DNA from: an uncultured Gemmatimonadota bacterium
GTDB taxonomy: Bacteria; Gemmatimonadota; Gemmatimonadetes; Palauibacterales; Palauibacteraceae
Assembly (NCBI GenBank): GCA_964509895.1
Contig: CAZDZJ010000132.1
Span: forward strand, 18,269 to 82,268
Length of the DNA stretch: 64,000 nucleotides
Direction of reading: 5' to 3'
Shown here: piece after piece, positions 47,167-62,784 of the stretch
Numbering within the stretch: the first letter of the stretch is position 1
How the letters are laid out: every line of letters begins with the position of its first letter
Notes under the pieces: model-generated
What the model was told of the DNA's origin: nothing
Database searches by the model: none
What the model saw: the letters and a program-made list of their open reading frames with translations, nothing else
Translations under genes and position numbers: made by a program

Positions 47167-47633
47167 CGGACCACGTCCTTGTAGGGGTCTTTCTTCTGCA
47201 TGAAGAGCCGCTCACGCACGACGGAGACGAAGAGGACAACGAGGCCGGCGATCAGCACGAGCATGCCCCAGCGAACGTAGACGGGCATCGTCGTGTCCCG
47301 GATCAACTCGCTGACGGCCATCCACAGGGTCCAGGTTCCGACCGTGATCGCGCCCAGCGAGATCAGGACCCAGCCGATGCCGCGCTCGAGTCGGCGATAC
47401 ACGTGTTCCCAGTAGCTGTCCCACGTCTCTTCCGGGGGTTTCAGGGGACTCATGGTATCGGTGACCTCCTTAAGGCGGTGGTACGTCCGCAGCTCGTCGC
47501 GCAGATCCGGGTTGTTCTGGAGCGCCGACTCGAGTTCGGCGCGTCCCTCTCCCGAAATCTCCCGGTCCACCTCGGCCATCATGAGTTGGCGCACCCGGTC
47601 GTCGCCGGGCGGGTTCGGCTTCCTCTCAGTCAT
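47163..47633 (-). CDS. Putative membrane-anchored anti-sigma factor
   Basis: It lies immediately downstream of the ECF sigma gene and overlaps it. An N-terminal helical cytoplasmic region is followed by two TM helices. There is no HxxxCxxC zinc motif. The ATG at 47633 is preferred over the GTG at 47642. Confidence 0.5.
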   Translation of the reverse strand: MTERKPNPPGDDRVRQLMMAEVDREISGEGRAELESALQNNPDLRDELRTYHRLKEVTDTMSPLKPPEETWDSYWEHVYRRLERGIGWVLISLGAITVGTWTLWMAVSELIRDTTMPVYVRWGMLVLIAGLVVLFVSVVRERLFMQKKDPYKDVVR

Positions 47634-48201
47634 CGCCCGCACCTCCCTCCCGGACGGGCCCCACTCTCGCCGTTTCGATCTCGCTGGCCAGAGACCGCCG
47701 CGCCCGGTAGAGGCGCGACATCACCGTGCCGATGGGGATTCCCAGCAACTCGGCGATCTCCCTGTATCGCAATCCCTCGAACTCGCGCAGGACGAGCGTC
47801 TCCCGCTCCCGCTCCGCAAGACGTTCGATGGCCGCGCCGACCTGTTCTCGCAGCTCGGAGCGCTCCGCCGCCTGATCGGGGGCGAGAGGGCGCCGGCCCA
47901 TCGTCGTGTCGCCAAGCCAGCTTCCCGCTCTCTCCAGCTTGAGGCGGCGGGAGCGCTGGTCCCGCGTATGGTTGAAACAGAGTCGTCGGATGATCTGGTA
48001 CAGCCAGGGGAAGAAGGGTCGCTCGGCATCGATCGTGGCCCGCGCCCGAAATGCCCTGGCGAAGGCCTCCTGTGAGAGATCCAGTGCGTCGTCGTGGTTC
48101 CCGACCAGTCCGAGCGCGGTATAGTAGGCACGCTGCATGTATCGTGTGACGAGTTCGCCGAAGGCCGCACGCTCGCCGCGCTGCGCGCGAAGCACGAGCA
48201 T
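47626..48201 (-). CDS. ECF (group 4) sigma-70 factor
   Basis: Region 2 is DALDLSQEAFARAF...FFPWLYQI. Region 4 is YREIAELLGIPIGTVMSRLYRAR. The start is ATG at 48201, or possibly the in-frame TTG at 48228. Confidence 0.85.
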   Translation of the reverse strand: MLVLRAQRGERAAFGELVTRYMQRAYYTALGLVGNHDDALDLSQEAFARAFRARATIDAERPFFPWLYQIIRRLCFNHTRDQRSRRLKLERAGSWLGDTTMGRRPLAPDQAAERSELREQVGAAIERLAERERETLVLREFEGLRYREIAELLGIPIGTVMSRLYRARRSLASEIETARVGPVREGGAGDD

Positions 48202-48342: not shown

Positions 48343-48807
48343 ATGAGCGAGTTCCCGGTCGGAGCAAGCCTGCAGCCCGAGATCGTTCCCTCCCGCTGGA
48401 CGCTGATCCGGGATGTGGCGGTCTTCCAGCTCAAGCTGCTCCTCGATGGTTTGAGGGATGCGTTGCTGGTGCCGATCTCGCTCTTCATCGCCGCGCTCGA
48501 CCTGCTCGGCGTGGGCCCTCGGGCGGGTCGGCAGTTCTACCACCTGCTGGAGTGGGGGCGCCGGACGGAGTACTGGATCAACCTGTTCGGCGCCACCGAT
48601 CATGTTCGCGCTCTGGCGTCGTCTCCGCGGCCGGGCGTCGATACGCTCGTCGACCGCCTCGAACGCCTGGTGGTGCAGGAGTACGAGCGGGGCGGGATCA
48701 CGGCCTCGACGAAGGACGCCGTGGACCGAGCCCTCGATGGCCTTACGAGGCGCGAGCCCTCCGGCGGGAGTCCGTCCGGCCGGGATCCCTCCGGACCATC
48801 GCCGTGA
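48343..48807 (+). CDS. Hypothetical membrane protein
   Basis: ATG at 48343. It has one or two hydrophobic helices (VAVFQLKLLLDGLRDALLVPISLFIAALDLLG). No family was recognised. Its 3' end overlaps the convergent his fusion ORF by 65 nt. Confidence 0.4.
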   Translation: MSEFPVGASLQPEIVPSRWTLIRDVAVFQLKLLLDGLRDALLVPISLFIAALDLLGVGPRAGRQFYHLLEWGRRTEYWINLFGATDHVRALASSPRPGVDTLVDRLERLVVQEYERGGITASTKDAVDRALDGLTRREPSGGSPSGRDPSGPSP

Positions 48808-51379
48808 GCCGGCGTTCAGCGGAGCGCGCGTGCGCCTCCAGGCCCTCCAGTCTGGCGAGCGCGGCCGTGTCGCGGAGCAGGTCCTCGTAGCCGTCCTCTT
48901 CCGGCGAGAGCGACAGCCACGTCGGACGGCGCAGGAACGAGAACACCGAGAGTCCCGAGTCGAACGCGGCCGCGCCGGACGTGGGGAGCGTGTGGTTGGG
49001 TCCGGCTCCGTAGTCTCCGGCGGCCTCGGGCGTGGCCGAGCCCAGGAAGAGCGATCCGTAGCGGCCAAGGCGGGGAGCGAGCGACTCGGCCCGATCGCCG
49101 TGCAGGTGCAGGTGTTCCGGCGCCACGGCGTTGCAGATGGCGGCGGCCTCGTCGGGGCTGGCCGCGAGGAGGGCGCCGCCGGCCGCCAGGGCCCGGCGCG
49201 CGATCGGTGCGGTCGGCAGCGCGGCCAGCTGCCGCCCGGCCTCTTCGCGGACGGCCTCGACGGTCGCTTCGTCGAAGGCGCACAGGAGCGGGACGGCGTC
49301 CGGGTCGTGCTCCGCCTGGGCGAGCAGGTCGGCCGCGACGCGCGCCGGCTCGGCATCCGGCGAGGCGACGACGAGCAGCTCGGAGGGGCCGGCGATGGTG
49401 TCGAGGCCGACCCGGCCGTAGAGGAGCCGCTTCGCCGCGGTGACGAAGCGGTTGCCGGGCCCCACGATCTTCTCGCAGCGCGGGACCCCGCCCACGCCGA
49501 ACGCGAGTGCGGCGATCGCCTGCGCCCCGCCCGCGGCGAGCAGGCCGTCCGCGCCGGCGATCAGCGCCGCGGCCTGTACGACCGGCGTCGGCCGAGGTGA
49601 GGCGACCCAGACCGAGGCGGCCCCCGCGACGCGCGCCGGAAGGGCCGTCATGAGGACCGAAGAGGGAAGCGGGAACCGTCCCCCCGGTGTGTAGCACCCC
49701 ACGCTCTCCAGCGGCACGAGCCGATGTCCGGCACGCCCGGCCGGGACGGGCGTGTCGAGTGCCGCGGCCGAGGCGAGCTGCGCCTCGGCGAAGGTTCGGA
49801 TCCGCCCCGAGACGCGTTCGAGCAGGTCGCGAGCCTCCTGGTCGATCTTATCGGCGGCCCGGGCGAGGGCCGCCCGGTCGAGCAGCAGGTTTGCGCCGGG
49901 CGGCAGATCGTCGAGGCGCGCCGCGTGTTCGCGAAGGGCCGTCTCTCCCCGCCGCTCGACGTCCTCGAGGATCGAGCGGGCGATCTCGAGCGCCTCCGGG
50001 TCGAGCGCCGGCCGGCGCACGGCCCGCACGGCTTCGTCGAGACCGATGGCCGGCAGGATGCAACCCGGCGGCGGGTCGCCCGCCGCGGCCGCCCGCCCGG
50101 TCGGCATCGCCGGCGGACGGCGGGGCGCGCGACGCCGAACCTTGAGCGCCCTCCGCGCAAGTTCGCCCCTCACGTCCGCGAGCGACCCGCCGGCTTCCAG
50201 CAGCCGCGTGAGGGCGAAGTAGCAGAGATCGGCGAATTCGGACACCGCCTCGTCCCTCGACGCGGCCGCCGCGAGCTCGCCGGCCTCCTCGACGAGCTTC
50301 CCCTGCAACAAGTCGGGTTCCCGAACGAGGCGCGCCGTCAGCGATCCGGGCTCCGCGTCGGCGATTCGCTCGCGAAGCCGCGCTTCGAGATCGGAGAGCC
50401 CCATCGTCGTCGGCGACGTCTCGGAATCGAAGCAACCCGCCGCGCCCGTGTGGCAGAAGCCGGAGCCGTGCTGCCGCACCGTGAAACGCAGCGTGTCCCG
50501 GTCACAGTCGAGCGCCACCCGCAGGAGTTCCTGTGTGGCGCCCGAGGATTCCCCCTTGCGCCACAACCCCCGCGAGCGGCTCCGGTAGATGCCGCGCCGT
50601 TCCTCGACGGCGGCCCGCAGGCTCTCCGGGCTCGACCACGCGAGGCCGAGGGCACGGCCGGCCTCATCCTCCACCAGCGTTGCCCACAACCTGTCGGGCC
50701 GGTCCGACGTCAGTGGGGCCGCGATGGCATCGCCCAGGTCCATGCGTCCGCTGTAGATCGCCATCCCCACCTGCGCGTCCGCTCCCAGCCGGTCGAGGGC
50801 CGCGACCTCCGAGGCGTCGCGGACGCCGCCGGCCACCGTGATCCGAGCCGCCCCCGCGGCGGTGACGAGCGCCGGAACGCGGTCCAGCGGGAGCCCTCCC
50901 AGCGTGCCCTCGACTTCGACGAACGTGACCAGGTAGCCTCCTGCCAGGCCATCGAGTTCCCGCATCCGCTCGGCGACGCCGCGGCCCGTCCCGCGGCGCC
51001 AGCCCTCGACGACGATCTCCCCGTCGCGCGCGTCGAGGGCCGCGATGACTCGATCGGGCGGGAGTCCGGTCAAGACGCCGGGATTGGCCGCCGTGCCCAG
51101 AATCACGCGCCGCGCCCCGGCGTCGAGCCAGTCGAGCGCGGCTTCCCGTGACCGGATGCCGCCGCCGACGCGGCAGGGCGCGAGCGCCAGCAGTTCACGG
51201 ATGACGGCGGCGTTGTCGCCCCGCCCCAGCGCCGCGTCGAGATCGATGACCGCGATCTCGCCCGCCACCGCGAACCTCTCCGCCAGCGGCCGTGGATCCC
51301 CCGCGTCGATCTCCAGCGTCGCGCCCTGGCGCAACTGCACGGCGCGGCCGCCCATGAGGTCGATCGATGGAACGATCAT
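48743..51379 (-). CDS. hisA-hisIE-hisD: Single ORF fusing HisA (ProFAR isomerase), HisI (PR-AMP cyclohydrolase), HisE (PR-ATP pyrophosphatase) and HisD (histidinol dehydrogenase) domains, 878 aa
   Basis: One uninterrupted frame carries all four domains. HisA spans aa 1-222 (MIVPSIDLMGGRAVQLRQG...VAGGVRD...GMAIYSG). HisI spans about aa 228-318 (YRSRSRGLWRKGESSG...LDCDRD...CHTG). HisE spans about aa 326-412 (LEARLRER...LVEEAGELA...EFADLCYF). An Arg/Pro/Ala linker follows. HisD spans about aa 441-878 (GCYTPGG, GGAQAIAALAFG, IVGPGNRFV, IAGPSE, AQAEHD, APEHL, GDYGAGPNHTLPT). The ATG overlaps the hisF stop (ATGA). Confidence 0.8.
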   Translation of the reverse strand: MIVPSIDLMGGRAVQLRQGATLEIDAGDPRPLAERFAVAGEIAVIDLDAALGRGDNAAVIRELLALAPCRVGGGIRSREAALDWLDAGARRVILGTAANPGVLTGLPPDRVIAALDARDGEIVVEGWRRGTGRGVAERMRELDGLAGGYLVTFVEVEGTLGGLPLDRVPALVTAAGAARITVAGGVRDASEVAALDRLGADAQVGMAIYSGRMDLGDAIAAPLTSDRPDRLWATLVEDEAGRALGLAWSSPESLRAAVEERRGIYRSRSRGLWRKGESSGATQELLRVALDCDRDTLRFTVRQHGSGFCHTGAAGCFDSETSPTTMGLSDLEARLRERIADAEPGSLTARLVREPDLLQGKLVEEAGELAAAASRDEAVSEFADLCYFALTRLLEAGGSLADVRGELARRALKVRRRAPRRPPAMPTGRAAAAGDPPPGCILPAIGLDEAVRAVRRPALDPEALEIARSILEDVERRGETALREHAARLDDLPPGANLLLDRAALARAADKIDQEARDLLERVSGRIRTFAEAQLASAAALDTPVPAGRAGHRLVPLESVGCYTPGGRFPLPSSVLMTALPARVAGAASVWVASPRPTPVVQAAALIAGADGLLAAGGAQAIAALAFGVGGVPRCEKIVGPGNRFVTAAKRLLYGRVGLDTIAGPSELLVVASPDAEPARVAADLLAQAEHDPDAVPLLCAFDEATVEAVREEAGRQLAALPTAPIARRALAAGGALLAASPDEAAAICNAVAPEHLHLHGDRAESLAPRLGRYGSLFLGSATPEAAGDYGAGPNHTLPTSGAAAFDSGLSVFSFLRRPTWLSLSPEEDGYEDLLRDTAALARLEGLEAHARSAERRLTAMVRRDPGRTDSRRRARAS

Positions 51380-52143
51380 CGCCGCACCGCCACGCCAAGC
51401 TGCTGCAGACGATCCTTGAGCCGGCCGATCGACCATTCTTCCTGATGGAATATGGATGCCGCCAACACGGCGTCGGCCCCCGCCCCGACCGCCGCGCACA
51501 TGTGTCCCGGATGGGCTCCACCCCCGGAGGCGACGATGGGTACCGGAACGGCGCCGCGAATCGCCGCGATCAGATCCAGGTCATAGCCGCTCCGCGTCCC
51601 GTCGCGGTCGAAGCTCGTGAGGAGGATCTCGCCCGCGCCCAGCTCCACCGCGCCGCGCGCCCAGTCCGCCGCGTCCCGTCCCGTGCGCTTCCGGCCGGAG
51701 TGCGTGAGCACCTCGAAGCCGCTGGGGCACTCGTCGGCCGGGGTGCCGGTCGCGTCCAGCGCCAGCACGGCGCACTGGGCGCCGAAGCGCATCGAGATCT
51801 CCTCCAGCAGGGAGGGCCGCTCGACGGCGGCGGTGTTCACCGCCACCCGGTCGGCCCCCGCCTCCAGCAGGGCGCCCGCGTCTTCCACCGTACGCACGCC
51901 GCCCCCGACGGTGAGCGGAATCGATATCTCGTCGCGGACCCGGCCGATCGTGCCGGCCCGGGCCAGCCGCCCGTCCTCGGTGGCCGACACGTCGAGGATC
52001 ACGATCTCGTCGGCGCCCTCCCGCTCGTAGCGCCGCGCGAGCCGCGCCGGCTCCCCCTGGTCCGCGAGATTCGCGAACCGGATCCCCTTGACGACCCGCC
52101 CGTCCTTCACGTCGAGGCACGGGATCACGCGTACATTCAACAT
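51376..52143 (-). CDS. hisF: Imidazole glycerol phosphate synthase cyclase subunit
   Basis: Motifs MLNVRVIPCLDVKDGRVVKG, TVGGGV, DRDGT and ASGG. Confidence 0.9.
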   Translation of the reverse strand: MLNVRVIPCLDVKDGRVVKGIRFANLADQGEPARLARRYEREGADEIVILDVSATEDGRLARAGTIGRVRDEISIPLTVGGGVRTVEDAGALLEAGADRVAVNTAAVERPSLLEEISMRFGAQCAVLALDATGTPADECPSGFEVLTHSGRKRTGRDAADWARGAVELGAGEILLTSFDRDGTRSGYDLDLIAAIRGAVPVPIVASGGGAHPGHMCAAVGAGADAVLAASIFHQEEWSIGRLKDRLQQLGVAVRR

Positions 52144-52820
52144 GCCGCGGCGACCCTCAAGGGCACCGGGGGCCTCTCGCGGCCGGCGGCCGCACTCGGG
52201 GCCAGTTCGAGCCATCGGGTCAGGAGCGCCGCGCCGACTCGCCCGGACAACTCCGGGTGGAACTGGCAGGCCAGTACGCCGGCCCGCTCGATCCCCGCCA
52301 CAAAGCGGGCCCCGTGCCGGCTCAGAGCCGCAGACCAGCCGTTCGGTGTAGCGGCGAGCCCATAGGAGTTGGCGAAGTAGACGATGCCCGGCCGGAGGAA
52401 GACGGTGCCCGCGGGAGCCGACAGCCGGTTCCAGCCAAGTTGCGGGACCCGTCCCGCCCCTTCGAGCCGGACCACTCGACCCGGCACGCAGCCGAGACCC
52501 GGGACTCCCGGCGCCTCGTCGCTTGCCTCGCACAGGAGCTGCAGGCCCAGGCAGATGCCCAGCGTCGGCCGGCCCGCCTCCACTCGCCGGCGGATCGCCT
52601 CCACCCATCCCCTGCGCCGAAGTTCGGCCATGCCTCCGGCGAAGGATCCCACGCCGGGCAGCACGACAAAATCCGCCCCCGCGATCCCGGCTGCGGAATC
52701 CAGCAGTCGGGGCGTCCTGCCCAGTCGCCGGAACGCCGCGGCCACTGCCTCGATGTTCGCCAATCCCGTCGGGACGATGCCCACCTCGTCCGGCCGCCTC
52801 ACGACGCGCGCGGCGCTCAT
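52137..52820 (-). CDS. hisH: Imidazole glycerol phosphate synthase glutamine amidotransferase subunit
   Basis: Motifs LPGVGSF, the catalytic GICLGLQLL, and QFHPE. The ATG at 52820 overlaps the hisB stop (ATGA). Confidence 0.85.
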   Translation of the reverse strand: MSAARVVRRPDEVGIVPTGLANIEAVAAAFRRLGRTPRLLDSAAGIAGADFVVLPGVGSFAGGMAELRRRGWVEAIRRRVEAGRPTLGICLGLQLLCEASDEAPGVPGLGCVPGRVVRLEGAGRVPQLGWNRLSAPAGTVFLRPGIVYFANSYGLAATPNGWSAALSRHGARFVAGIERAGVLACQFHPELSGRVGAALLTRWLELAPSAAAGRERPPVPLRVAAAC

Positions 52821-53506
52821 CGGGCCGCCGCTTCGAGGGCGCAATCCCTCGAATCCTCCTTGCCGGCGAGGTCAGGGGGGGCGTCCGACTCGAGGACCCC
52901 CTTCGTACTGGGAATTCCGCCCGCGGCCCGCCGGGAGACCGCCTCTCCGAGCGCGAGCCCGAACGACTTGAAGGCCGCCTCCGCCCGGTGGTGGTCGTTG
53001 TCGCCCCGCAGCACGTCGAGGTGAAGCGTCAGACGGGCCGACGTTGCGAGCGACGTGAAGAAATGCGCCAGGTTCTCGGTGGCCACGCTGCCCAGCATCT
53101 CCCGCCGGAGACCCAGATCCACGGTGGCGGAGGGGCGGCCCGACAGATCCACGACGGCCCTCGCGAGCGCCTCGTCGAGCGGCGCGTAGGCGTAGCCGAA
53201 GCGGCGGATTCCGCTCCTCTCGCCGAGCGCGTCCCGAATCGCGGAGCCGAGAACGATCGCGCAGTCCTCCACCGTGTGGTGGTCGTCGACTTCGAGATCG
53301 CCGCGCGCGCACAGATCCAGCGTCATCCCGCCGTGGAAGGCCGCGGCCCCGATCATGTGGTCCAGAAAGGGCAACCCGGTCTCGACCTGACTCGGTCCTC
53401 GCCGGTCGAGATCGAGTCGTGCCTCGATCGCGGTCTCGAGCGTCCGCCGGGATCTCCTGCCCGTGCGGTTGCCGTCCGGTGAAGGATTCCTCGTGTGGCT
53501 ACCCAT
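52817..53506 (-). CDS. hisB: Imidazoleglycerol-phosphate dehydratase (dehydratase domain only)
   Basis: Motifs FLDHM, DDHHTVED, NDHHRAEAAFK and STKGVL. There is no N-terminal histidinol-phosphatase domain. ATG at 53506. Confidence 0.9.
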   Translation of the reverse strand: MGSHTRNPSPDGNRTGRRSRRTLETAIEARLDLDRRGPSQVETGLPFLDHMIGAAAFHGGMTLDLCARGDLEVDDHHTVEDCAIVLGSAIRDALGERSGIRRFGYAYAPLDEALARAVVDLSGRPSATVDLGLRREMLGSVATENLAHFFTSLATSARLTLHLDVLRGDNDHHRAEAAFKSFGLALGEAVSRRAAGGIPSTKGVLESDAPPDLAGKEDSRDCALEAAAR

Positions 53507-54545
53507 CGGTCTTCTCTCCGCAAGGTTCGTCAAGGGTCGGGCCAAGTGTCGTATCGAGTACGGCGAGCACGCGGCGGAAGGTCGCCTCGTCCCCGGGAAG
53601 CGTGATCCGGATGAGCTCCGGGCGGTTCGGGAAGCGCCGCACGGCGATCCCGGCGCGTCGGAACCCCTGGTGCAACGCGCCCGACCGGTCGCTGGCGGCG
53701 AGCACGAAGTTCGCCTCGGAGGCGAATGGGTCGGCGCCCCATGCCTGCAGCGCGGCGCACAGCCGGCTGCGTTCGCCGCGGACGGCCGCCACGTGCGCCT
53801 GGGTGATGCGGTCGCCCAGCGAGAGCGCCCGCTCCGCGAGCCAGATGGACGGGCCCGACAGCGGGAAGGGTGGCCCGGAGGTCCGGAGGGCATCGATGGC
53901 CGGGCGCGCTCCCAGGACGCACCCGACCCGAAGCCCCGCGAGCCCCCACGCCTTCGAGAGCGTCCGCACGACGAGGACGTTGTCCCGCTCCAGCAGGGCC
54001 CGGGTGGGATCGGAATCCGCGTACTCCACATACGCGAGGTCGGCGAGGAGCAGGGCCCCACCCGGCAGGTGCTCGGCAATCTCGAGCATGCGGAACGCGG
54101 GGACGACCCGGCCGGTGGGGTTGTGCGGCGAGATCACCGTCACGAGTCCGGTCCGCTCGCCGAGCCGCCCGAGGATCGGCGCCAGGGGCGCGGGGTCCCG
54201 AAGCGTGGGGATCTGGCGCACGCGTCCGCGCGCCAACCCGGCGAAGTGCGGCATCATCTCGAACGTCGGCGCCACCGTGATCATGTCCCGCCCGCCCGCG
54301 AGCTGGAGGCGACAGATGCGGTCGATCGCATCGTCCGCTCCCGCGGTGACGAGGACGCGGCCCGGCTCGAGGCCCCAGAGATCGGCCAGTTGCCGCTCCA
54401 GACCCGAAGCATCCGGGTACCGCGTCAGGGTCGTCGCCGGAACCCGGGCGAGAAGGGGCGCGAGTCCGGGCGCCGGGAAGAGACGCTCGTTGCGGTCGAG
54501 CCTCAGCAGCTCACCCGGCGCCGCCGCCACCGCTACGGTGTTCAC
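53499..54545 (-). CDS. hisC: Histidinol-phosphate aminotransferase
   Basis: Motifs LDRNE, YPD, NPTG, and the PLP-lysine motif TLSKAWGLAGLRVG. The gene sits inside the his operon. Confidence 0.85.
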   Translation of the reverse strand: MNTVAVAAAPGELLRLDRNERLFPAPGLAPLLARVPATTLTRYPDASGLERQLADLWGLEPGRVLVTAGADDAIDRICRLQLAGGRDMITVAPTFEMMPHFAGLARGRVRQIPTLRDPAPLAPILGRLGERTGLVTVISPHNPTGRVVPAFRMLEIAEHLPGGALLLADLAYVEYADSDPTRALLERDNVLVVRTLSKAWGLAGLRVGCVLGARPAIDALRTSGPPFPLSGPSIWLAERALSLGDRITQAHVAAVRGERSRLCAALQAWGADPFASEANFVLAASDRSGALHQGFRRAGIAVRRFPNRPELIRITLPGDEATFRRVLAVLDTTLGPTLDEPCGEKTDG

Positions 54546-55405
54546 GCGACGATCTGCCCCGGCGCGGTCACGACGAGGTCCGTGCCGCCTCGCGCCTTCA
54601 CCAGTGGAATCAGCGTCGGCAGCGCCTCGCGAAGCACCGCGACGCGAATCGCGTACCCCCCGTCTTCGTGCAGACGCGACACGGTGGGTTTGCGCATGCA
54701 GGGAAGGACCGACACCAGCTCGTCCAGACGTCCGGAGTCCACATTGACTTCGAGCATCACGCGCCTGCGGGCCTCGAGGACCGATTCCAGTACCAGCACG
54801 AGGTCGGCGATCCGGTCTCGGTGGGGCGGCGTCTCGAGGGCCCGCGGATTCGCGTAGAGGCGGGTCGACGAGGTCATGAGTTCGTCCACCACCTCGAGTC
54901 CGTTGGCCTCCAGCGTTGCGCCCGTCGCGGTGTTGTCGACGATCACGTCGGCGTCTTCGGGCGGGAACACCTCGGTCGCCCCGTACGAGCGGACGAGCGT
55001 CGCGTCCAGTCGGCGCCCGTCGATCCAGCGCGACGCCAGCCGGCGGTATTCCGAGGCGACCGTGAGGGGGCGTACGGTCTCGAGGCCGGCTACCGCCAGC
55101 GGCGCCGGGGCGGCCGCGACGACCCGCACCGGGTCGAGTTCGGTGTCGAGCAGTTCGACGAGCGATCCGTCAAGCTCCGCCACCCAGTCGGCCCCCGCGA
55201 ACCCGAGATCGCGCGAGCCCGCGTGGAGCATCTCCACCACGTTCTGCGGCTTGAGCAGCTTGGCGGTGAATCGCGGGACCGAAACGGCCGGGCGGTAGCG
55301 GCGCTCCCCCAGGTCGACGCGCACGCCGGCGGCGGTCAGCAACTCGAGTACGCCCGCCTGCATGCGGCCCTTCGGCAGAGCCAGTCTGGTGTCGTCGTGG
55401 GTCAT
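54542..55405 (-). CDS. hisG: ATP phosphoribosyltransferase, long form with C-terminal regulatory domain
   Basis: ATG at 55405. Motifs LALPKGR, DLGFAGADW and DNTATGATLEANGL. The C-terminal roughly 80 aa form an ACT-like domain (VMLEVNV...). Confidence 0.9.
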   Translation of the reverse strand: MTHDDTRLALPKGRMQAGVLELLTAAGVRVDLGERRYRPAVSVPRFTAKLLKPQNVVEMLHAGSRDLGFAGADWVAELDGSLVELLDTELDPVRVVAAAPAPLAVAGLETVRPLTVASEYRRLASRWIDGRRLDATLVRSYGATEVFPPEDADVIVDNTATGATLEANGLEVVDELMTSSTRLYANPRALETPPHRDRIADLVLVLESVLEARRRVMLEVNVDSGRLDELVSVLPCMRKPTVSRLHEDGGYAIRVAVLREALPTLIPLVKARGGTDLVVTAPGQIVA

Positions 55406-55444
55406 GTCGGCTCTCGGTGCCGACACCGGAGGGGGGAGGCGGCG

Positions 55445-55472
55445 AAAAAAAAGCCGGCCACCCCGGGCCGGC
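55445..55472 (-). terminator. Intrinsic terminator in the his operon 5' leader (attenuator terminator)
   Basis: The minus strand reads GCCGGCC-CGGGGT-GGCCGGC followed by TTTTTTTT. That is a 7-bp GC stem, a 6-nt loop and a U8 tract, ending 39 nt upstream of the hisG ATG. No minus-strand gene lies upstream that it could terminate. Confidence 0.65.
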
Positions 55473-55513
55473 ATCGATCGTTCGCAACCTCTGTTCAGAA
55501 AATGGCTAGACGA

Positions 55514-55579
55514 TCACCGGCCTCCGCTCTCGCGGTGGTAGTAGTAATAGTGGCCGAAAAAGGAATGCCGGTTCGTCAT
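55514..55579 (-). CDS. Candidate 21-codon leader peptide MTNRHSFFGHYYYYHRESGGR
   Basis: The sequence is ATG ACG AAC CGG CAT TCC TTT TTC GGC CAC TAT TAC TAC TAC CAC CGC GAG AGC GGA GGC CGG TGA. It is an AT-rich codon run in a GC-rich genome, 41 nt upstream of the terminator. Its 3' end (GGCCGGTGATCG) is complementary to CGATCGATGCCGGCC, which includes the terminator's 5' arm. Confidence 0.5.
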   Translation of the reverse strand: MTNRHSFFGHYYYYHRESGGR

Positions 55580-55747
55580 AGGGCGCGGAGGTTGGCACCC
55601 TGTCGCCTGCTTGTCAAGGTCGTATGCTTGTCGCTCCCGGTCTGGCCATACTCGCGTCCCCGATCCGACCGTGCTCGAACAGCCGAGACACTTCCGGACG
55701 GACGCCGTCGCCGGACCCCCGAACTCACTTCGGCCCTGGACGCGAGA

Positions 55748-56749
55748 ATGACCGATTCCCCGGCCCGGCCCGGCCGGACCCCGACGCCCGAGTCGAGCAG
55801 GGAAACGCGGGCGCGGATCGACCCCTGGATCGAACGGACGCCCGTGCGAAGGTGGATCCCCGACCGGGGTGTGGTGTCGCTTCCGGAAGGGTCCGAACTC
55901 TTCCTCAAGCTCGAGTTGTTCCAGCGCACCGGCTCCTACAAGGTGCGGGGGGCTCTCAACAACGTCCTCGCCGCGGATGCTGAAACGCTGCGGCGCGGGG
56001 TTACGGCCGTGAGCGCCGGGAACCATGCCATCTCCGTGGCCTATGCCGCGCAGTCCGTGGGCACCACGGCGAAGGTCGTCATGCTTTCCTCCGCCAACCC
56101 GGCACGCGTCGCGCGCTGCCGGAACTTCGGGGCGGAGATCGAGTTCGCCGACGATGGCGCGCGCGGATTCGAACGCATGGAGGAGATCGCCCGCGCGGAG
56201 GGGCGGCTGACGATCCATCCCTTCGAAGGTGAAGCCACGGTGCTCGGGACCTCGACCGTAGGCCTCGAGGTCGCGGAGCAACTTCCCGATCTCGACGCGC
56301 TCGTTGTCCCCATCGGGGGCGGAGGACTCATCTCCGGCACTTCGAGCATCGTGAAACAGCTCGCGCCCGCGTGCCGCGTCTACGGGGTGGAACCGGTGGG
56401 TGCCGACTCCATGCGGCGGAGCCTCGACGCGGGCGAGCCGGTGGCGCTCGACCGTATCGATACGATTGCGGACAGCCTCGGAGCCCCCCATGCGGCGCCT
56501 TACAGCTTCGGGCTCGTCCGGCGGTACGTGGACGATGTCGTGCTCGTTGACGATGACGCGATCCGCGGCGCGATGCGGGCCCTCTTCCTCGACGCGAAAC
56601 TGGTCGCCGAGCCCGCCTCCGCCGCCCCGCTCGCCGCGGCATGCGGTCCGCTCCGAGAGCGGCTGGCCGGGCTGCGCGCAGGTCTCGTCCTGTCCGGTTC
56701 CAACATCGACCTCGACACCTTCGCGGCACACATCCGGGCGGGCGGCTGA
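55748..56749 (+). CDS. PLP-dependent threonine/serine dehydratase (threonine ammonia-lyase-like, no regulatory domain)
   Basis: ATG at 55748. The PLP-lysine motif is TGSYKVRGA; other motifs are SAGNHA, GGGGLISG and SGSNID. Confidence 0.85.
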   Translation: MTDSPARPGRTPTPESSRETRARIDPWIERTPVRRWIPDRGVVSLPEGSELFLKLELFQRTGSYKVRGALNNVLAADAETLRRGVTAVSAGNHAISVAYAAQSVGTTAKVVMLSSANPARVARCRNFGAEIEFADDGARGFERMEEIARAEGRLTIHPFEGEATVLGTSTVGLEVAEQLPDLDALVVPIGGGGLISGTSSIVKQLAPACRVYGVEPVGADSMRRSLDAGEPVALDRIDTIADSLGAPHAAPYSFGLVRRYVDDVVLVDDDAIRGAMRALFLDAKLVAEPASAAPLAAACGPLRERLAGLRAGLVLSGSNIDLDTFAAHIRAGG

Positions 56750-56933
56750 TGCCCCGCCTCCGCGTCGGCCTGACCCGGGCCCGCCCGCGCGGCCGGCGGG
56801 GGCGTCGTCCGGGGGCCGATGCGGCGGCGTTCGAATGGCCGCGCTATTTCCGCGGCACTACACTGGAATCAGGTGCCCCGGCACTCCTGCCCGGGCCGGC
56901 CGTCCCTGGTCTTGCCATGAAGGAGGGAACGGA

Positions 56934-58040
56934 ATGAGCGAAGGAGCCGTGAGACGTCTTCCGGCGGTGACCACCCTGGGGCTGGTTGCGCTTCTCTCCA
57001 GCGTCTCTCCTCTCCCCGTCGCGGCGCAGTCGATCACCGTCGTGTCCTGGGGCGGGTCCTATGGCCGGGCCGTCGACGAGGGCGCCAACATTCCCTTCAC
57101 CGAGGCGACCGGCATCCGTGTCAGGATGGAGGACTACAACGGTGGCCTCGCCCAGATACGGGCCCAGGTGGACATCGGAAACATCCATTGGGATGTCGTC
57201 GACCTGGAGATCGCGGATGCCGTGCGCGGTTGCGACGAGGGGCTGCTCGAGCCGCTAGACATCGACGATCTGCCTCCCGGTGCCGACGGCACTGCCGCGG
57301 CCGACGACTTCGTGGCCGAGACCCAGACCCGGTGCGGGGTTGCCAATGTGTACTGGTCGACCGTGTACGCCTACAACGACGAGAGCTTCCCGGGCGAGAA
57401 GCCCGCGACCATGGCCGACTTCTTCGACCTGGAGAAGTTCCCGGGCCGCCGGGGGATGCGGCGGGTACCGCAGGTGAACCTGGAGTTCGCCCTGATCGCC
57501 GACGGCGTGCCGCTCGATGAGGTCTACGGCACGCTGAAGACGCCGGAGGGCCTGGACCGGGCCTTTGCCAAGCTCGAAACGATCAGGGACGAGGTGGTGT
57601 GGTGGGAGGCGGGCGCCCAGCCGCCGCAGCTGTTGGCCGACGGGGAAGTGGTCATGAGCACGGCGTACAACGGCCGCATCTTCAATGCCCGGATCATGGA
57701 AAACCAGCCGTTCGTGATCGTGTGGGACGGGCAGTTGCTGGACGTGGGCCAGCTCGGGATCGTCGCGGGTACCCCGAGGCTTGAGGAGGCGCTGAGATAC
57801 GTGGCCTTCAGCACCAGCGCCGAGTCTCTGGCGCGCATCGGCCGCCGCATCTCCTATTCCCCGGCGCGCAGATCCGGCAGGCCACTGGTGACGACCCATG
57901 TAGTCGCGGGAATCGACATGGGGCCCCACCTGCCGGCCGGCGCGGGCAACGTGGACCGTGCGCTTCAGTACGACTGGGCGTTCTGGGTCGACTACCAGGA
58001 CGCGCTGAACGAGCGTTTCAGCGCCTGGCTGGCGCGCTAG
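56934..58040 (+). CDS. ABC-type periplasmic solute-binding protein (polyamine/PotD-like family 1), orphan
   Basis: ATG at 56934 is preceded by AAGGAGGGA. The signal is LGLVALLSSVSPLPVAAQ. The mature start ITVVSWGGSYG is typical of the PotD/PotF-like family. No permease or ATPase gene is adjacent. Confidence 0.75.
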   Translation: MSEGAVRRLPAVTTLGLVALLSSVSPLPVAAQSITVVSWGGSYGRAVDEGANIPFTEATGIRVRMEDYNGGLAQIRAQVDIGNIHWDVVDLEIADAVRGCDEGLLEPLDIDDLPPGADGTAAADDFVAETQTRCGVANVYWSTVYAYNDESFPGEKPATMADFFDLEKFPGRRGMRRVPQVNLEFALIADGVPLDEVYGTLKTPEGLDRAFAKLETIRDEVVWWEAGAQPPQLLADGEVVMSTAYNGRIFNARIMENQPFVIVWDGQLLDVGQLGIVAGTPRLEEALRYVAFSTSAESLARIGRRISYSPARRSGRPLVTTHVVAGIDMGPHLPAGAGNVDRALQYDWAFWVDYQDALNERFSAWLAR

Positions 58041-58049
58041 TGTCGGGCG

Positions 58050-60320
58050 TCAGAACACCACCCGATAGCTGGCGTTCAGACTCCGCCCGCCCTCCGGCAT
58101 GATCTCCTTCACGCGCGAGAGGTGGTTGCGGTACTCGGTATTCGCGGCGTTGGCCAGGCTCACGGTCAGGACGTTCAGGCGCCCGCCGAGCGTAAACCGC
58201 ACCCCTGCCGCGGCGTTGAAGACGGTGTACCCATCTGTCCGCGTCTCGAATTCGCCGACCCGGTCCTGACGGTCCGCCATCTCGACCTCCGTGCGCACAT
58301 ACCACGACGGCCTCTCGTACTTCACGGCCACATGTCCCTTGAGCGGAGGCACGAGAGGCAAGGGTTGACCGGTCTCCTTCAGGCTGCCTTTCACGGATGA
58401 GGCCACTCCCTCCAGCGCCAGTCCCCGCCCCGCGTCGACGTCCACGCCGGCTTCGAAACCGCTGAATACGGCGTCGTTGCCCTGAAACTGATAAACGGGG
58501 AGGCGCACGCGGCTCAGGCGGCCCGTGTCCTCCCCGTAGATGTGGTTCTTGATGTCGTTGTGGAAGCCGGTGACCTCGGCCCTCAACCGGTCGGACTCGA
58601 AGCGGAGGAAGATGTCGAACCCCCTCCCGACCTCGCTCTCCAGCGACGGGTTTCCGACTTCGAAGACGTAGGCCGCCAGATGCGGCCCTTCCGAATAGAG
58701 TTCGGCGATGTCGGGTGTGCGAACCGCCCGGGCAACGCTGGTGCCGATGACCAGCCCGGCGGCGGACTTGTAGAGGACACCCAACGACCCCGACAGCGAG
58801 TGGAATCTGCGGTCGCGGATCTCACCGATGTCCGACACCCGATCTTCCCCCGGATCGGTCAGGGTCCAGTCGTAGCGTAGCCCCGACTCGATCTGGATGG
58901 AGCCCAGGTTGACCTCCTCGAGCAGGTACAGGGCCGCCTTGAACCGACGCGTGTCCGGCGTGTGGAGGGATCCCCCGTATGCGAAGTCCTCCCAGGACGC
59001 ACGGCCGCCCATCGCACCCCCGGAAAACGGTCCCCAGCTCCCATGCCGACCCAGGACGTCCGCGTTCGCCCTCCTTTGCTCGAAGAGCGTGCCCAGAATG
59101 TCCGCGGCTTCGATCTCGCGGTGCGTATACCACGTGTGCGTCGCGTCGAGGCGGAGGTTGTGGAAGGGTCCGACCGGCTCTTCGACCACGGTCCGGAACT
59201 TCGATGAGACCCGCTCCATTTCGATGCGCACCCCCTCCGCGTGCCCACCCGTGAAACCTCCCGGGATGCCGTAGTAGTTGCGGTAGCCGCGGAAGGAGCC
59301 CCCCAGGCGGCCCCAATCGGCGACGTAGGCCGTCCCCGCACCCCCGCTCCACATTTCGCCGTCGGTGTTGAGAAGCGTGCCGACGGGGGTCTTCAGGTCT
59401 CCCGCCGTCCGCGCGGCCACCTCCACACGCAGCGGCACGCGCTCCGCGATGGCGAACGCGGCCGTCGCGCTGCCGGCCAGCGAGCCGGTCGCGGTCTCCG
59501 TCTGCAGGTTCGCCGCGCCCGTCAGGCGGTGCGGCACGGCCGTGGGAATCTCGTCGCGGGTGACGTTGATGACCCCGCCCAGCGCGTTGCCCCCGTACAG
59601 CAGCGCCCCCGGGCCCCGCACAACCTCGATCCGTCGCGCCGAGGAGGGATCGAGTGCGGTGGTGTGGTCGGCGCCCGCATTGGACGCATCCCCCACCGCG
59701 GTCCCGTCCTCGAGCATCAGTACCCGATCGCCGCTCAGTCCGCGGATCACCGGTTGCGCAACCGCTGGACCCATCTTGGTGGCGGCCAGCCCCGGCATTG
59801 ACGCCAGCGTCCCCGCGACGGTCGCCGTCATCTGGCGTTGCAGGTCATCGCCCGTCATGACGCTGACCGGCCGGAGCGCCTCGGCGGCGGTGCGCTCGCT
59901 GATGGTGGCCGTCACGACCAGGTCGTTCATCGCAATCGGAGATGGTGACAACTCGATCACGACCTCCGCCGACTCCGCCACCGCGCGGCGGGCGCGTACG
60001 GTCCCCACGGTCACGTCCACGGTGGCGCCCCGGTACCCCAGGCGATCGGCCCGAAGGGTGTACACGCCCGCGGCCAGCCCGGTCAGGTGGAAGGTGCCGT
60101 CCGCGCGCGTTACCGCCCTGGTCTCCCTCCCGACCACCGATACGTGCGCTCCCGCCAGGGGGAAACCGGTACCCGCGTCCCGCACATTGCCCTCGAACAC
60201 ATACGCTTGCTGTCCCTGCCCGGCCAGGTCGGCGATGTCGGGAAGCGTGGGCCACGAAAGGCCCACCGCCGCAAGCATTGGGGCGAGAAGGCGGATTCGC
60301 TTTGCGATCGCTGAAGGCAT
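58050..60320 (-). CDS. TonB-dependent receptor with an N-terminal carboxypeptidase-regulatory-like domain
   Basis: ATG at 60320 is preceded by GGGAGGAAC. The CarboxypepD_reg-like segment is GNVRDAGTGFPLAGAHVSVVG...GTFHLTGLAAGVYTLRADRLGY. The plug region has VRGPGALLYGGNALGGVINV. The beta-barrel ends in ...ASYRVVF. Confidence 0.9.
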   Translation of the reverse strand: MPSAIAKRIRLLAPMLAAVGLSWPTLPDIADLAGQGQQAYVFEGNVRDAGTGFPLAGAHVSVVGRETRAVTRADGTFHLTGLAAGVYTLRADRLGYRGATVDVTVGTVRARRAVAESAEVVIELSPSPIAMNDLVVTATISERTAAEALRPVSVMTGDDLQRQMTATVAGTLASMPGLAATKMGPAVAQPVIRGLSGDRVLMLEDGTAVGDASNAGADHTTALDPSSARRIEVVRGPGALLYGGNALGGVINVTRDEIPTAVPHRLTGAANLQTETATGSLAGSATAAFAIAERVPLRVEVAARTAGDLKTPVGTLLNTDGEMWSGGAGTAYVADWGRLGGSFRGYRNYYGIPGGFTGGHAEGVRIEMERVSSKFRTVVEEPVGPFHNLRLDATHTWYTHREIEAADILGTLFEQRRANADVLGRHGSWGPFSGGAMGGRASWEDFAYGGSLHTPDTRRFKAALYLLEEVNLGSIQIESGLRYDWTLTDPGEDRVSDIGEIRDRRFHSLSGSLGVLYKSAAGLVIGTSVARAVRTPDIAELYSEGPHLAAYVFEVGNPSLESEVGRGFDIFLRFESDRLRAEVTGFHNDIKNHIYGEDTGRLSRVRLPVYQFQGNDAVFSGFEAGVDVDAGRGLALEGVASSVKGSLKETGQPLPLVPPLKGHVAVKYERPSWYVRTEVEMADRQDRVGEFETRTDGYTVFNAAAGVRFTLGGRLNVLTVSLANAANTEYRNHLSRVKEIMPEGGRSLNASYRVVF

Positions 60321-60465
60321 GGTTCCTCCCACTCCTGCGTGTCCAGGGCGTGTGCAAGGGCCGCAGGCCGAATCGCGGTATGGCAGGTTAGAGCGGTGCC
60401 AACACTCCGGGCAACCTGGTGGAGGCGTGAAAACCCTTTGGTGCCCCCGGGGCGTCAAAGACGGT

Positions 60466-62784
60466 GTGAGAGACAGCGGAAGGACTCGGCGGTGGCTGCC
60501 GCGGAGAGCGAAGAAGCGCAGGGGTCGGTGGCTCATGCTCGTGGCCGCGGCGATCCTCGCCGCCGGCTTCGGCTATCACGCATTCGAGGCCCGGGTGGCG
60601 CGCGAGTTCGCGTCGCTCGACGCCGCTTCCCCGACCCGTTTCGTGGCGCGACCGTGGACCCTCCGAGCCGGGGATCGGGTCGACCCACAGCGCCTCATCG
60701 ACCACTTGAAGAAGGTGGGCTATCGATCGGTCTCCGGCAGAACGCCACAAGCCGGAGAGTTCAGCGCACGCGGTCGCGATCTGTTCGTGGGCCGCCGCGC
60801 GCTTCGTCTCGGCGGATTCTTTGAGCCCGGCGTCCGCGCGTGGGTGCGATTCCGGGGCGGCGTGCGCATCTCGGCGATCCGGGACGCCGAAGGGCGCGAC
60901 CTCGCCCAGCTGCTGCTCGATCCAGAGGTGATCGGAACGTCCCTCGGGAAGCGCGGCCGGGATCGGGTACCCGTCCGGCTGGACGAGGTGCCGGAACACC
61001 TGGTCGACGCGTTGTTGACGGTGGAGGACCGCCGCTTCTACGAACACGGGGCGCTGGATCCCCGCCGCATCGCCGGCGCCGCGCTCTCGAACCTCCGCCA
61101 GCGGCGCGTCGTCGAGGGTGGCAGCACCATTACCCAGCAGCTCGCCCGTACGCTCTTCCTGTCAACGGACCGGACCGTGTTCCGCAAGCTGCGCGAGGCG
61201 GCCATCGCGGTGGCGCTGGAACGACGTTTCTCCAAGCAGCGCCTCCTCGAGGCCTACGTGAATCACATCTACCTCGGGCAGCACCGGGGGACCGCCATCC
61301 ACGGCTTCGGACGCGCCGCGCAATTCTACTTCGGCCGTGACATCTCGGAGCTGACGCTGGGCCAGTCGGCGATGCTGGTCGGGATCGTCCGGGGGCCGAG
61401 CGTGTACTCGCCCCATCGCCACCCGGAGCGGGCCCGGGCCCGGCGCGACCTTGTGTTGCGGCAGATGCACGCCGTTGGCCACGTGGACGACGCGCGGCGC
61501 GACGCCGAGTTCGAAGCGGATCCGGGGATTCGACATCCGCCGGAGCGGAACTTCGATGCCCGCTGGTATCTGGATTTTATGCGCCGGGAGCTGGCCGCCG
61601 GCGACGATTCGCCGGCACCGGAGCGTGGCGGTCCAACGGTGGTTTCTTCGCTTTCGCCGGAGATGCAACGCGCCGCCGAGACCGCGGTCTCAAACGGGAT
61701 TCGCGGCATGGAGCGCCTGCGTCCCCGGCTGAAGGAAGGGGCGGAGCCGCTTCAGGCGGCGCTGGTCGCCCTGGATCCGCGTACCGGTGACATCCTGGCG
61801 ATGGTCGGGGGCCGCTCGTACGGGGAGTCGCAGTTCAATCGGGCTGCGCACGCCCGGCGCCAACCTGGAAGCGCCTTCAAGCCCGTGGTGGCGCTGGCTG
61901 CCCTGGCACCGGGAGCGGGCCCGTCGTTCACCCTGGCTTCCGTGCTGGAAGACGAACCGCTCGCGCTGGATACGCCAGCCGGCGTGTGGCAGCCAGTGAA
62001 CGCAGACCGCGAGTTCCTCGGACGCATCAGGCTGCGCGAGGCGCTGGAGGGGTCGCGCAACGTACCGTTCGCCCGCCTGGGCCTGGCGGTCGGTACCGAC
62101 AGGATCATCGAGACGGCGCATCGGCTGGGCATCGAGGGTCCCCTCGCACCGTATCCGAGTCTGGCGCTCGGCGCCTCCGAGGTCACGCCGCTCGAACTGA
62201 CGGCGGCCTATGCGGTGCTGGCCGCGGAGGGCCTGCGTACGCCGCCTCGCTCGGTGATCGCGGTGCTCGGCCGCGACGGCGTTTTGCGGGAGCAGGCTGC
62301 GGGTCGCAGCGAGTGGGTCATCAGCCCGGCGGAGGCGTATCTGATCACGTCCGCGCTGCGCGGCGTGGTCGAGCGCGGGACCGGGAGCGGCGTCCGCAAC
62401 GCGGGATACCGCGGTCCCGTGGCGGCGAAATCCGGGACGACGAACGGTTCCCGCGACGCCTGGTTCGTCGGCTACACACCGGAACTGGCGGTAGGCGTGT
62501 GGGTTGGATTCGACGACGGGACGCCTGTCGGTCTCCCCGGCTCCAGGGCCGCCCTCCCGATCTTCGCGGACTTCATGATCCGCGTCCTTGGCCCCCATGG
62601 AGGCCGCAGGTTCCGCATGCCGCGGGGCGTGGAGTGGATAGAAATCCAGCCCGAGACCGGTCTGCGCGCCGGCTGGGGCTGCCGCGGCGAACCCGAACTC
62701 TTCCTCACGGGCACGGCGCCCGAGGCTTCCTGTGGCTACCGGCCGCGTCCCTGGCGCCGGCTGGGGTCACTCAGGACTCGGTAG
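60466..62784 (+). CDS. Class A penicillin-binding protein (glycosyltransferase GT51 + transpeptidase)
   Basis: GT51 motifs are EDRRFYEHGALD, GGSTITQQL and RKLREA. Transpeptidase motifs are SAFKP (SxxK), SRN and KSGTT. I propose the GTG at 60466, which gives a basic cytoplasmic tail before the TM helix. ATG at 60535 and GTG at 60427 are in-frame alternatives. Confidence 0.85.
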   Translation: MRDSGRTRRWLPRRAKKRRGRWLMLVAAAILAAGFGYHAFEARVAREFASLDAASPTRFVARPWTLRAGDRVDPQRLIDHLKKVGYRSVSGRTPQAGEFSARGRDLFVGRRALRLGGFFEPGVRAWVRFRGGVRISAIRDAEGRDLAQLLLDPEVIGTSLGKRGRDRVPVRLDEVPEHLVDALLTVEDRRFYEHGALDPRRIAGAALSNLRQRRVVEGGSTITQQLARTLFLSTDRTVFRKLREAAIAVALERRFSKQRLLEAYVNHIYLGQHRGTAIHGFGRAAQFYFGRDISELTLGQSAMLVGIVRGPSVYSPHRHPERARARRDLVLRQMHAVGHVDDARRDAEFEADPGIRHPPERNFDARWYLDFMRRELAAGDDSPAPERGGPTVVSSLSPEMQRAAETAVSNGIRGMERLRPRLKEGAEPLQAALVALDPRTGDILAMVGGRSYGESQFNRAAHARRQPGSAFKPVVALAALAPGAGPSFTLASVLEDEPLALDTPAGVWQPVNADREFLGRIRLREALEGSRNVPFARLGLAVGTDRIIETAHRLGIEGPLAPYPSLALGASEVTPLELTAAYAVLAAEGLRTPPRSVIAVLGRDGVLREQAAGRSEWVISPAEAYLITSALRGVVERGTGSGVRNAGYRGPVAAKSGTTNGSRDAWFVGYTPELAVGVWVGFDDGTPVGLPGSRAALPIFADFMIRVLGPHGGRRFRMPRGVEWIEIQPETGLRAGWGCRGEPELFLTGTAPEASCGYRPRPWRRLGSLRTR

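Follow-up and report, generated by a model that had tools for sequence, protein, structure and literature searches.

The window analysed here, a 64-kb stretch of DNA from an uncultured bacterium of the phylum Gemmatimonadota, carries on its minus strand, directly upstream of hisG, a leader that is very probably a ribosome-mediated leader-peptide transcription attenuator controlling the hisG-hisC-like-hisB-hisH-hisF-(hisA-hisIE-hisD) operon in Candidatus Palauibacter. The HisG protein encoded in the window is 82-94 % identical to HisG of this sponge-associated genus (PMC10469786), and 100 % identical to one protein of a public collection. Ribosome-stalling attenuation had been proposed for this leader in an earlier note on the same DNA, and the model is supported by the conservation of the element in 18 leaders, by outgroup homologues that carry runs of His codons, and by a switch between two folds when the RNA occupied by a ribosome is masked. 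The ancestral sensor was such a His run, and the window, when its codons are aligned with those of its relatives, stands at the last stage of a series in which His gave way to Tyr, and Tyr to Phe, step by step at the same codon positions. Dual His/aromatic input to the operon is plausible.

Anatomy, conservation and folding of the leader

The components of the leader are given below in window coordinates, all on the minus strand, together with the short open reading frame (sORF) that encodes the leader peptide; distances are in nucleotides (nt).

55612-55617, minus strand: -35 hexamer TTGACA; the same hexamer in 24/24 leaders, with a spacer to the -10 hexamer that is always 17 nt
55589-55594, minus strand: -10 hexamer CAACCT, recovered by ortholog comparison; ends 9 nt before the sORF ATG
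55514-55579, minus strand: leader sORF MTNRHSFFGHYYYYHRESGGR, 21 codons plus TGA (ATG at 55579, TGA at 55516-55514)
55565-55573, minus strand: second, window-specific 5' partner AACCGGCAU, from the pairing analysis
55552-55558, minus strand: region 1, UUCGGCC, with two possible partners, the GGCCGG of region 2 and that of region 4
55535-55561, minus strand: regulatory codon block, codons 7-15, TTT TTC GGC CAC TAT TAC TAC TAC CAC = F F G H Y Y Y Y H
55524-55535, minus strand: P1 hairpin CCGC-GAGA-GCGG, with a 4-bp stem
55509-55522, minus strand: region 2 GGCCGGUGAUCGUC, the antiterminator 5' arm, which includes the sORF stop codon
55466-55483, minus strand: region 3 GAACGAUCGAUGCCGGCC, the antiterminator 3' arm, which overlaps the terminator 5' arm
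55445-55472, minus strand: intrinsic terminator GCCGGCC-CGGGGT-GGCCGGC plus T8 (stem-loop 55472-55453, T8 55452-55445)

The 21-codon sORF, the terminator, the hairpin that follows the regulatory codons (55535-55524) and the TTGACA hexamer (55617-55612) had all been described in the earlier note, and each is found where that note placed it. The distances between them are likewise correct: TTGACA sits 32 nt 5' of the sORF ATG, the terminator, with its 7-bp all-G/C stem, 6-nt loop and U8, starts 41 nt past the sORF stop, and the hisG ATG (55405) follows 39 nt after the U-tract. As the note had also observed, no minus-strand gene lies upstream; the neighbour is a divergent PALP-family dehydratase gene on the plus strand, starting at 55748, and the terminator therefore lies in a 5' leader. 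Only this one terminator-like site (55472-55445) occurs within 54500-57000. The leader features are not attributable to chance, since the U-tract is the sole run of at least seven T in the whole window on both strands, the promoter-start pattern TTGAC[AC]-N16-18-NANNNT-N5-11-[AG]TG has a single match in the 64 kb, again on both strands, the sORF holds an excess of aromatic codons, and related genomes keep the element in front of hisG. The stretch that separates the terminator from the hisG AUG (55406-55444, minus strand) contains a C-rich tract, CGCCGCCUCCCCCCUCCGG, which is kept across the genus, and a small hairpin, GUCGGC-ACCGAGA-GCCGAC, at 55424-55406 (minus strand); the hisG AUG itself has no clear Shine-Dalgarno sequence. 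A conserved hairpin between the terminator and the hisG ATG was considered and found unconvincing, just a 3-bp core being kept.

Promoter geometry was compared over 24 leaders. The -35 hexamer is invariant, and the -10 hexamer varies among orthologues (GATCCT, GATGCT, CATCGT, GAACAT, GAGAAT and similar) around an A at position 2 and a T at position 6 that are present in 24/24. A generic promoter scan of the region found nothing, because the -10 hexamer agrees with the consensus at these two positions only. The distance from the -10 hexamer to the sORF ATG is 7-10 nt (9 nt in the window) and the sORF is not preceded by a Shine-Dalgarno sequence, from which it follows that the sORF is probably leaderless or near-leaderless, its start being deduced from the geometry of the promoter.

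Relatives of the leader were collected by a scan of hisG loci with one genome per species, which returned 80 loci, and additional lineages were recovered by exact-protein lookups of HisG proteins with intermediate identity (73-78 %). A DNA-pattern scan of metagenomes for the region 2/region 3 motif gave 79 loci, of which 77 were rejected as chance matches in GC-rich DNA, leaving L126 and L149 as the only real leaders. The resulting set of 18 leaders comprises 11 Palauibacter genomes, these two metagenome contigs and five outgroup lineages. The complete element, from TTGACA through the U-tract, lies upstream of hisG in all 11 Palauibacter loci and in both contigs, and across the 18 leaders the promoter, the length of the open reading frame (20-21 codons), the P1 stem, regions 2-4 and the U-tract are kept, while loops and spacers vary. 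With a covariance model built from the leader alignment, every one of these loci reaches 99 bits or more and the window has a single match; the Ca. Palauibacter irciniicola locus (L166), which was left out of model building, also reaches at least 99 bits, and hisG loci of other phyla give weak full-length matches (15-35 bits) at the corresponding upstream site.

Alignment of the orthologous leaders, the comparison that the earlier note had envisaged for the sORF, shows its frame and the whole element recurring in the 18 leaders. The frame is kept despite a 3-nt in-frame insertion in the window leader, stop codons that change between TGA, TAA and TAG, and many TAY codons that are one mutation away from a stop; synonymous changes are seen as well. 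In L160 (1321-1453), where the UGA has become GGA, a frame shifted by a 1-nt insertion carries the sORF on to a conserved UAG 9 nt downstream, and in L162 (1325-1455) the stop is UAA, with the region-2 pair retained as A-U; the exact position of the stop is thus flexible within region 2. The 4-bp stem of P1 is paired in 18/18 leaders under loops as different as GAGA, GCAA, GUAC, GUGC, CCGC, CAGA, GGGA and CACU, and P1 is possibly a pause hairpin. The dipeptide-coding GGC-CAY (Gly9-His10) is found in all except two of the 18 (Arg9 in L001 and L008).

The RNA has a classical four-region layout, as CCGGCC-like sequence occurs in regions 1 and 3 and GGCCGG in regions 2 and 4. The end of the sORF, GGCCGGUGAUCG(UC) at 55522-55509, can base-pair with (GAA)CGAUCGAUGCCGGCC at 55483-55466, and this pairing of region 2 with region 3, which had been put forward as an alternative antiterminator, is what RNAalifold returns as the consensus of the 18 leaders; it also returns a helix between CGGCC (codons 8-10) and the terminator 3' arm. 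Over the orthologues, the segment energies (in kcal/mol) run from -16 to -30 where the sORF pairs with region 2; those of the antiterminator lie between -23 and -28, and those of the terminator between -15.4 and -19. In the window, folding was repeated with the RNA masked up to the leading edge of a ribosome whose A-site was moved codon by codon: with codons 1-15 in the A-site the minimum-energy structure is the antiterminator, and once codon 16 is reached it is the terminator, which persists up to the stop. The comparison of the two conformers suggested in the earlier note thus comes out with the antiterminator as the stronger helix and with the switch at the step from codon 15 to codon 16. 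All codons for His, Tyr and Phe fall inside the read-through range; the stalling range thus holds codons for more than one amino acid (F, H and Y), and each gives the antiterminator when in the A-site. The evidence for the switch comes from this window-specific masking run, from the segment energies and from the L012 clade (L012, L013, L029 and L058), in which different helix sequences follow an equal switch logic.

On these grounds, the following course of events is proposed. A σ70-type promoter (TTGACA, 17 nt, CAACCT) would start the transcript, and the 21-codon sORF would be translated in a leaderless or near-leaderless manner. When translation runs through to the UGA, the ribosome would cover region 2, region 3 would pair with region 4 and transcription would stop 39 nt before hisG. 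If no ribosome is present, the 5' half of the sORF would pair with region 2 and termination would again be permitted. A ribosome stalled at a starved codon within codons 1-15, which include His5 and codons 7-15, would leave region 2 free to capture region 3; the region 2:3 helix being the stronger, the terminator would be blocked and RNA polymerase would read on into hisG.

Several points weigh against this account. The start of transcription, the ending of RNAs at the U-tract and read-through under starvation are predictions. The masking scan across orthologues, with the RNA ended at the U-tract, was too noisy for quantitative use, and in a model that masks the ribosome footprint only, the window-specific AACCGGC can re-pair with region 2 behind the stalled ribosome, restoring the terminator. 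Only 2-3 His codons are left, with just one in the central block of L007, and sensitivity to His may be weak. Finally, the structural support consists of conservation and energetics, not of covariation: the sORF and both helices are kept among relatives (the terminator 100 % and the antiterminator 98.4 % paired in 18 sequences), and the compensatory changes for which the earlier note had advised looking are almost absent, both helices being nearly invariant with a change on both sides at one pair only. Such near-invariance is expected of segments under two pairing constraints.

Sensor codons and alternative readings

The codons of the regulatory block, 7-15 in the window, align with the His runs of the orthologues on the same RNA scaffold, and the leader peptides can be arranged as follows.

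L163 (outgroup): MINNAHHHGHRHIHRESGGR, with the His run HHHGHRHIH
L011 (outgroup): MMRYTDHHGHHHIHRGSGGR, with the His run HHGHHHIH
L012 clade (outgroup): MNTRTPTPTHHHHGHREAVV
L162 (intermediate): MRNSMLHTGHYYHHRESGGR; the block in L160/L162 is HTGHYYHH
L164 (intermediate): MREFQDYTGHTHHYRHCGGR
Palauibacter (typical): MTNTHPFFGHYYYHRVRGGR, of the FFGHYYYH type
Palauibacter, variants of the H10-H14 block: HYCYH, HYFIH, HYFFH and HYFYY

All 13 Palauibacter leaders have 2-3 His and 4-6 Phe/Tyr codons, against 4-6 His codons at the homologous positions of the outgroups; the window leader has three His codons (positions 5, 10 and 15), and Tyr and Phe occupy its remaining sensor positions. The stall block had struck the earlier note as unusual, and this oddity proves to be a genus-wide trait, HY(Y/F)(Y/F)H plus FF. 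Six of the 21 leader codons specify Phe or Tyr, compared with 3.4 % in neighbouring genes (Tyr 1.2 % and Phe 2.1 % of 3,392 codons; p = 5e-5). That the ancestral sensor was a His run follows from the wider survey, in which about 60 of the 80 hisG loci have a His-rich sORF upstream, a criterion passed by none of the 11 Palauibacter loci. These His-rich sORFs, with 4-7 His in 7 codons, lie 100-310 nt upstream of long-form hisG among loci L012-L080 and come from Gemmatimonadota, Acidobacteriota, Planctomycetota/Phycisphaerae, Spirochaetota and others; many have no obvious U-tract, and some may act on translation instead. In many of these loci the covariance model of the Palauibacter leader has a weak full-length match at this position.

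The leader should still be responsive to His-tRNA charging. If the mechanism holds, the charging of Tyr- and Phe-tRNA should matter too, since any starved codon among codons 1-15 stalls the ribosome and a Tyr/Phe response is therefore a near-mechanical consequence. A tentative refinement, compatible with the attenuator explanation, is that the device is an adaptive multivalent attenuator, whose Tyr and Phe codons have been selected and in which aromatic as well as His shortage de-represses the his operon. This is favoured by the retention of 4-6 Phe/Tyr codons at the sensor positions of 13/13 Palauibacter leaders, far above their frequency nearby, and by the nature of the changes within the genus, which are mostly exchanges of Tyr and Phe (about 4 of 6 non-synonymous events keep aromaticity, p about 0.003-0.04 depending on the neutral rate assumed). 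AT-rich rare codons moreover persist in a genome of 70 % GC, codon 11 being TAT in 13/13 and codon 7 TTT in 12/13 leaders (locally, TAT makes up 24 % of Tyr and TTT 10 % of Phe codons), and the passage from His to Tyr to Phe at positions 7-8 requires two successive mutations. By the opposing reading, which is about as probable and equally tentative, the attenuator senses His only, with its 2-3 His codons, and the Tyr and Phe codons are degenerate filler, tolerated C-to-T drift from CAY. The E. coli trpL leader, which senses with two Trp codons, is the model for such a device. A single transition turns CAY into UAY; His-to-Tyr changes fall at differing positions in different lineages (7 and 14 in L164, 11-12 in L160/L162, 14 in L007), suggesting that mutation has taken this path repeatedly; His10 never varies and His14 hardly does, and Cys and Ile also appear at the variable positions (L003 and L005). 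Under drift at 70 % GC, however, AT-rich aromatic codons would not be expected to persist among species with spacers as diverged as these, and 5-6 aromatic codons cannot be silent if the device works at all, because any starved codon stalls. Against the multivalent reading, selection for a G-poor, unstructured stretch could give the same codons; the ancestral CAC run is G-free too.

The genomic evidence that bears on a putative physiological rationale for multivalence points both ways. The relevant counts come from Table S3 of PMC10469786, an automated KEGG Orthology (KO) annotation of metagenome-assembled genomes (MAGs), on which the correlation with Palauibacter depends.

K04518, prephenate dehydratase: 18/18 sponge Palauibacter MAG columns, 1/30 other Palauibacterales
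K04517, prephenate dehydrogenase: 0/18 sponge Palauibacter, 5/30 other Palauibacterales
K00817, HisC-family: mostly 2-4 copies in sponge Palauibacter, 0-2 in other Palauibacterales

Prephenate dehydratase and extra HisC-family copies thus mark the same genus (PMC10469786), and crossover between histidinol-phosphate and aromatic substrates is known in aminotransferase subfamily I-beta (PMC4703992), all of which would suit an aromatic input. Among the rows listed in the table, none is K00220, K00500, K15226, K11358 or K14187, which is weak evidence of absence. On the other side, the operon is without an aromatic-pathway gene, the pocket residue of its aminotransferase is of the histidinol-phosphate type (Asp in GADD), and a genome that mostly has 2-4 paralogues does not require the one in the operon for making aromatic amino acids. 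That a His-only attenuator was re-tuned by selection in Palauibacter to a multivalent sensor, with interchangeable Tyr/Phe codons as its main stall sites, is accordingly offered as a conjecture that is possible rather than probable. If it were true, aromatic shortage would turn on the his operon and the divergent HisC-like enzyme might feed Phe/Tyr synthesis; alternatively, in an annotation without prephenate dehydrogenase, Tyr might serve as a proxy for the supply of host-derived amino acids. The series HHHGHRHIH to HTGHYYHH to FFGHYYYH would then be a rare observable switch of the sensed amino acid.

Two further explanations dispense with tRNA charging sensed by a translating ribosome. The sORF might be untranslated and the switch thrown by a protein, by tRNA in a T-box-like manner or by a metabolite, as could be argued from the absence of a Shine-Dalgarno sequence before the sORF and from its translation being deduced instead of directly evidenced; we regard this as very unlikely, given that no Rfam family, T-box included, matches even at E up to 10, that the reading frame and the position of the stop inside region 2 are conserved together with an in-frame indel and synonymous changes, that the His runs of the orthologues are meaningful only if translated, and that the promoter geometry suits leaderless initiation. 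Less likely still is a nascent-peptide sensor of the TnaC kind, in which a small molecule would cause the ribosome to be arrested by the aromatic peptide. Both the aromatic-rich composition and a C-terminal HRxxGGR are conserved, as such a peptide would demand, yet the conservation of the C-terminus is fully accounted for by the P1 and region 2 helices that it encodes, the aromatic positions interchange Tyr, Phe, Cys and Ile, unlike those of arrest peptides, and arrest at the stop would mask region 2, favouring termination and not induction.

The his operon and its surroundings

The genes downstream of the attenuator were assigned from profile matches.

54542-55405, minus strand: hisG, long form with C-terminal regulatory domain (Pfam HisG and HisG_C, NCBIfam); first gene of the operon
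48743-54545, minus strand: remainder of the operon, hisC-like, hisB, hisH, hisF and the hisA-hisIE-hisD fusion (profile matches)
53499-54545, minus strand: HisC-like aminotransferase (NCBIfam hisC TIGR01141, 195 bits against a 276-bit cutoff)
48743-51379, minus strand: HisA-HisI-HisE-HisD fusion, a single open reading frame of 878 amino acids

Synteny is common to the relatives (L163, L011, L164, L160/L162 and the L012 clade), in which a divergent PALP gene is followed by hisG-hisC-hisB. The HisC-like protein, whose gene occupies the identical place in the operon of every relative, is a divergent member of the HisC family, its 195 bits against hisC being slightly above those against CobD (169 bits). 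The earlier note had ventured that this HisC might double as an aromatic aminotransferase, a proposal that was tried and found unsupported: histidinol-phosphate enzymes head the structural matches, the aromatic enzyme of Mycobacterium tuberculosis ranking third, and the specificity position is a hydrophilic Asp (GADD), as in histidinol-phosphate enzymes, where the M. tuberculosis aromatic enzyme has Val (PMC4703992); the genus has, besides, mostly 2-4 paralogues. No aromatic-pathway genes were found within the his operon, and the next gene after hisD, at 47626-48200 (minus strand), encodes an ECF σ factor. This gene and that for a TonB-dependent receptor with a CarboxypepD_reg domain (58050-60536, minus strand) form an ordinary context that has nothing to do with the attenuator.

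The fusion joins the domains HisA, HisI (PRA-CH), HisE (PRA-PH) and HisD (histidinol dehydrogenase), and a full-length comparison that takes in the linkers gives 81 % identity to an 881-amino-acid gene product of Ca. Palauibacter irciniicola (L166, 11977-14622). A his fusion with these four activities is unusual; the HIS4 fusion of yeast covers I-E-D only. ARAGORN places an 86-nt tRNA-Gly(GCC) at 49198-49283 (plus strand), antisense to the hisD part of the fusion, which is probably a false positive, since the Rfam tRNA model has no above-threshold match anywhere in the window. Although the his operon is intact in the window and in L166, the near-complete MAGs of sponge Palauibacter show erratic KO calls for hisD (K00013) and hisH (PMC10469786, Table S3). 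KO assignment is probably led astray by the fusion gene, and the published 'putative histidine auxotrophy' of some species (PMC10469786) may be an annotation artefact. Standard pipelines miss both the sORF and the hisA-hisIE-hisD fusion, and this probably contributes to the reported His 'auxotrophy' of these sponge symbionts.

Comparison with known attenuators

Leader-peptide attenuation is in itself a textbook mechanism, and what is new here is not the mechanism, already known, but the phylum Gemmatimonadota, the likely leaderless sORF and the graded replacement of His by aromatic codons. Functionally, the leader is of the hisL/trpL type and stands outside the RF00514 His_leader and T-box families: a scan of 54000-57500 against Rfam at E up to 10 found no RF00514, T-box or other family, and a scan of the whole window at gathering thresholds found neither His_leader nor T-box nor any other family. 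According to recent surveys, his attenuators occur in Proteobacteria and some Firmicutes only (PMC9413887), and a full-text literature search for Gemmatimonadota with leader peptide and attenuation found no paper. The present leader would extend his attenuation to a phylum for which neither Rfam nor the searchable literature has an entry on it. It would also provide a natural experiment on the evolution of attenuator specificity and sensitivity, as the composition of the sensor has changed along a traceable lineage with the RNA switch held fixed, and it makes the testable prediction that Tyr/Phe starvation de-represses a his operon.

The enterobacterial hisL (RF00514) has in common with the Palauibacter leader a short open reading frame upstream of hisG, mutually exclusive terminator and antiterminator, the masking of a stop-proximal arm and the regulated pathway, but the two have no detectable homology in sequence or structure, and the Palauibacter sORF is probably leaderless whereas hisL is Shine-Dalgarno-led. 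The E. coli his leader contains seven consecutive His codons, in contrast to the 2-3 scattered His codons of Palauibacter, where Tyr and Phe take the other sensor positions. Closer in circumstance are the His leaders predicted in Firmicutes (the Bacillus cereus group, Peptostreptococcaceae and Erysipelotrichales; PMC9413887), which also combine an sORF containing His codons with alternative hairpins before his operons, outside Proteobacteria and RF00514; they differ in belonging to another phylum, in their unrelated sequence and in their 3-5 consecutive His codons.

For the leaderless sORF, the nearest parallels are the leader-peptide attenuators of Deinococcus deserti (PMC4007540) and the polycysteine sORFs of mycobacteria (bioRxiv 10.1101/834739), both leaderless with mapped start sites, in which an sORF at or near the 5' end of the transcript controls downstream genes through codon-specific stalling. 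Their starts have been mapped whereas that of Palauibacter is read from promoter geometry, and phyla and sensed amino acids differ. For a regulatory block with codons for more than one amino acid, the counterparts are the E. coli thr leader, with Thr and Ile codons, and the ilvGMEDA leader, with Leu, Val and Ile codons, in each of which all the amino acids sensed depend on enzymes that the operon itself encodes. Unlike these operons, the Palauibacter his operon holds only his genes, and a metabolic link of this kind to Tyr and Phe would be conjectural. Runs of Phe codons are themselves employed as sensors in pheL leaders (PMC3082878). True homologues, finally, are the leaders of L163, L011, L164, L160/L162 and the L012 clade, which share promoter spacing, sORF length, P1, regions 2-4 and synteny with the Palauibacter leader, and from which it differs in its sensor: the leaders of these neighbouring lineages have 4-6 His codons, and those of Palauibacter have 2-3 His and 4-6 aromatic codons.

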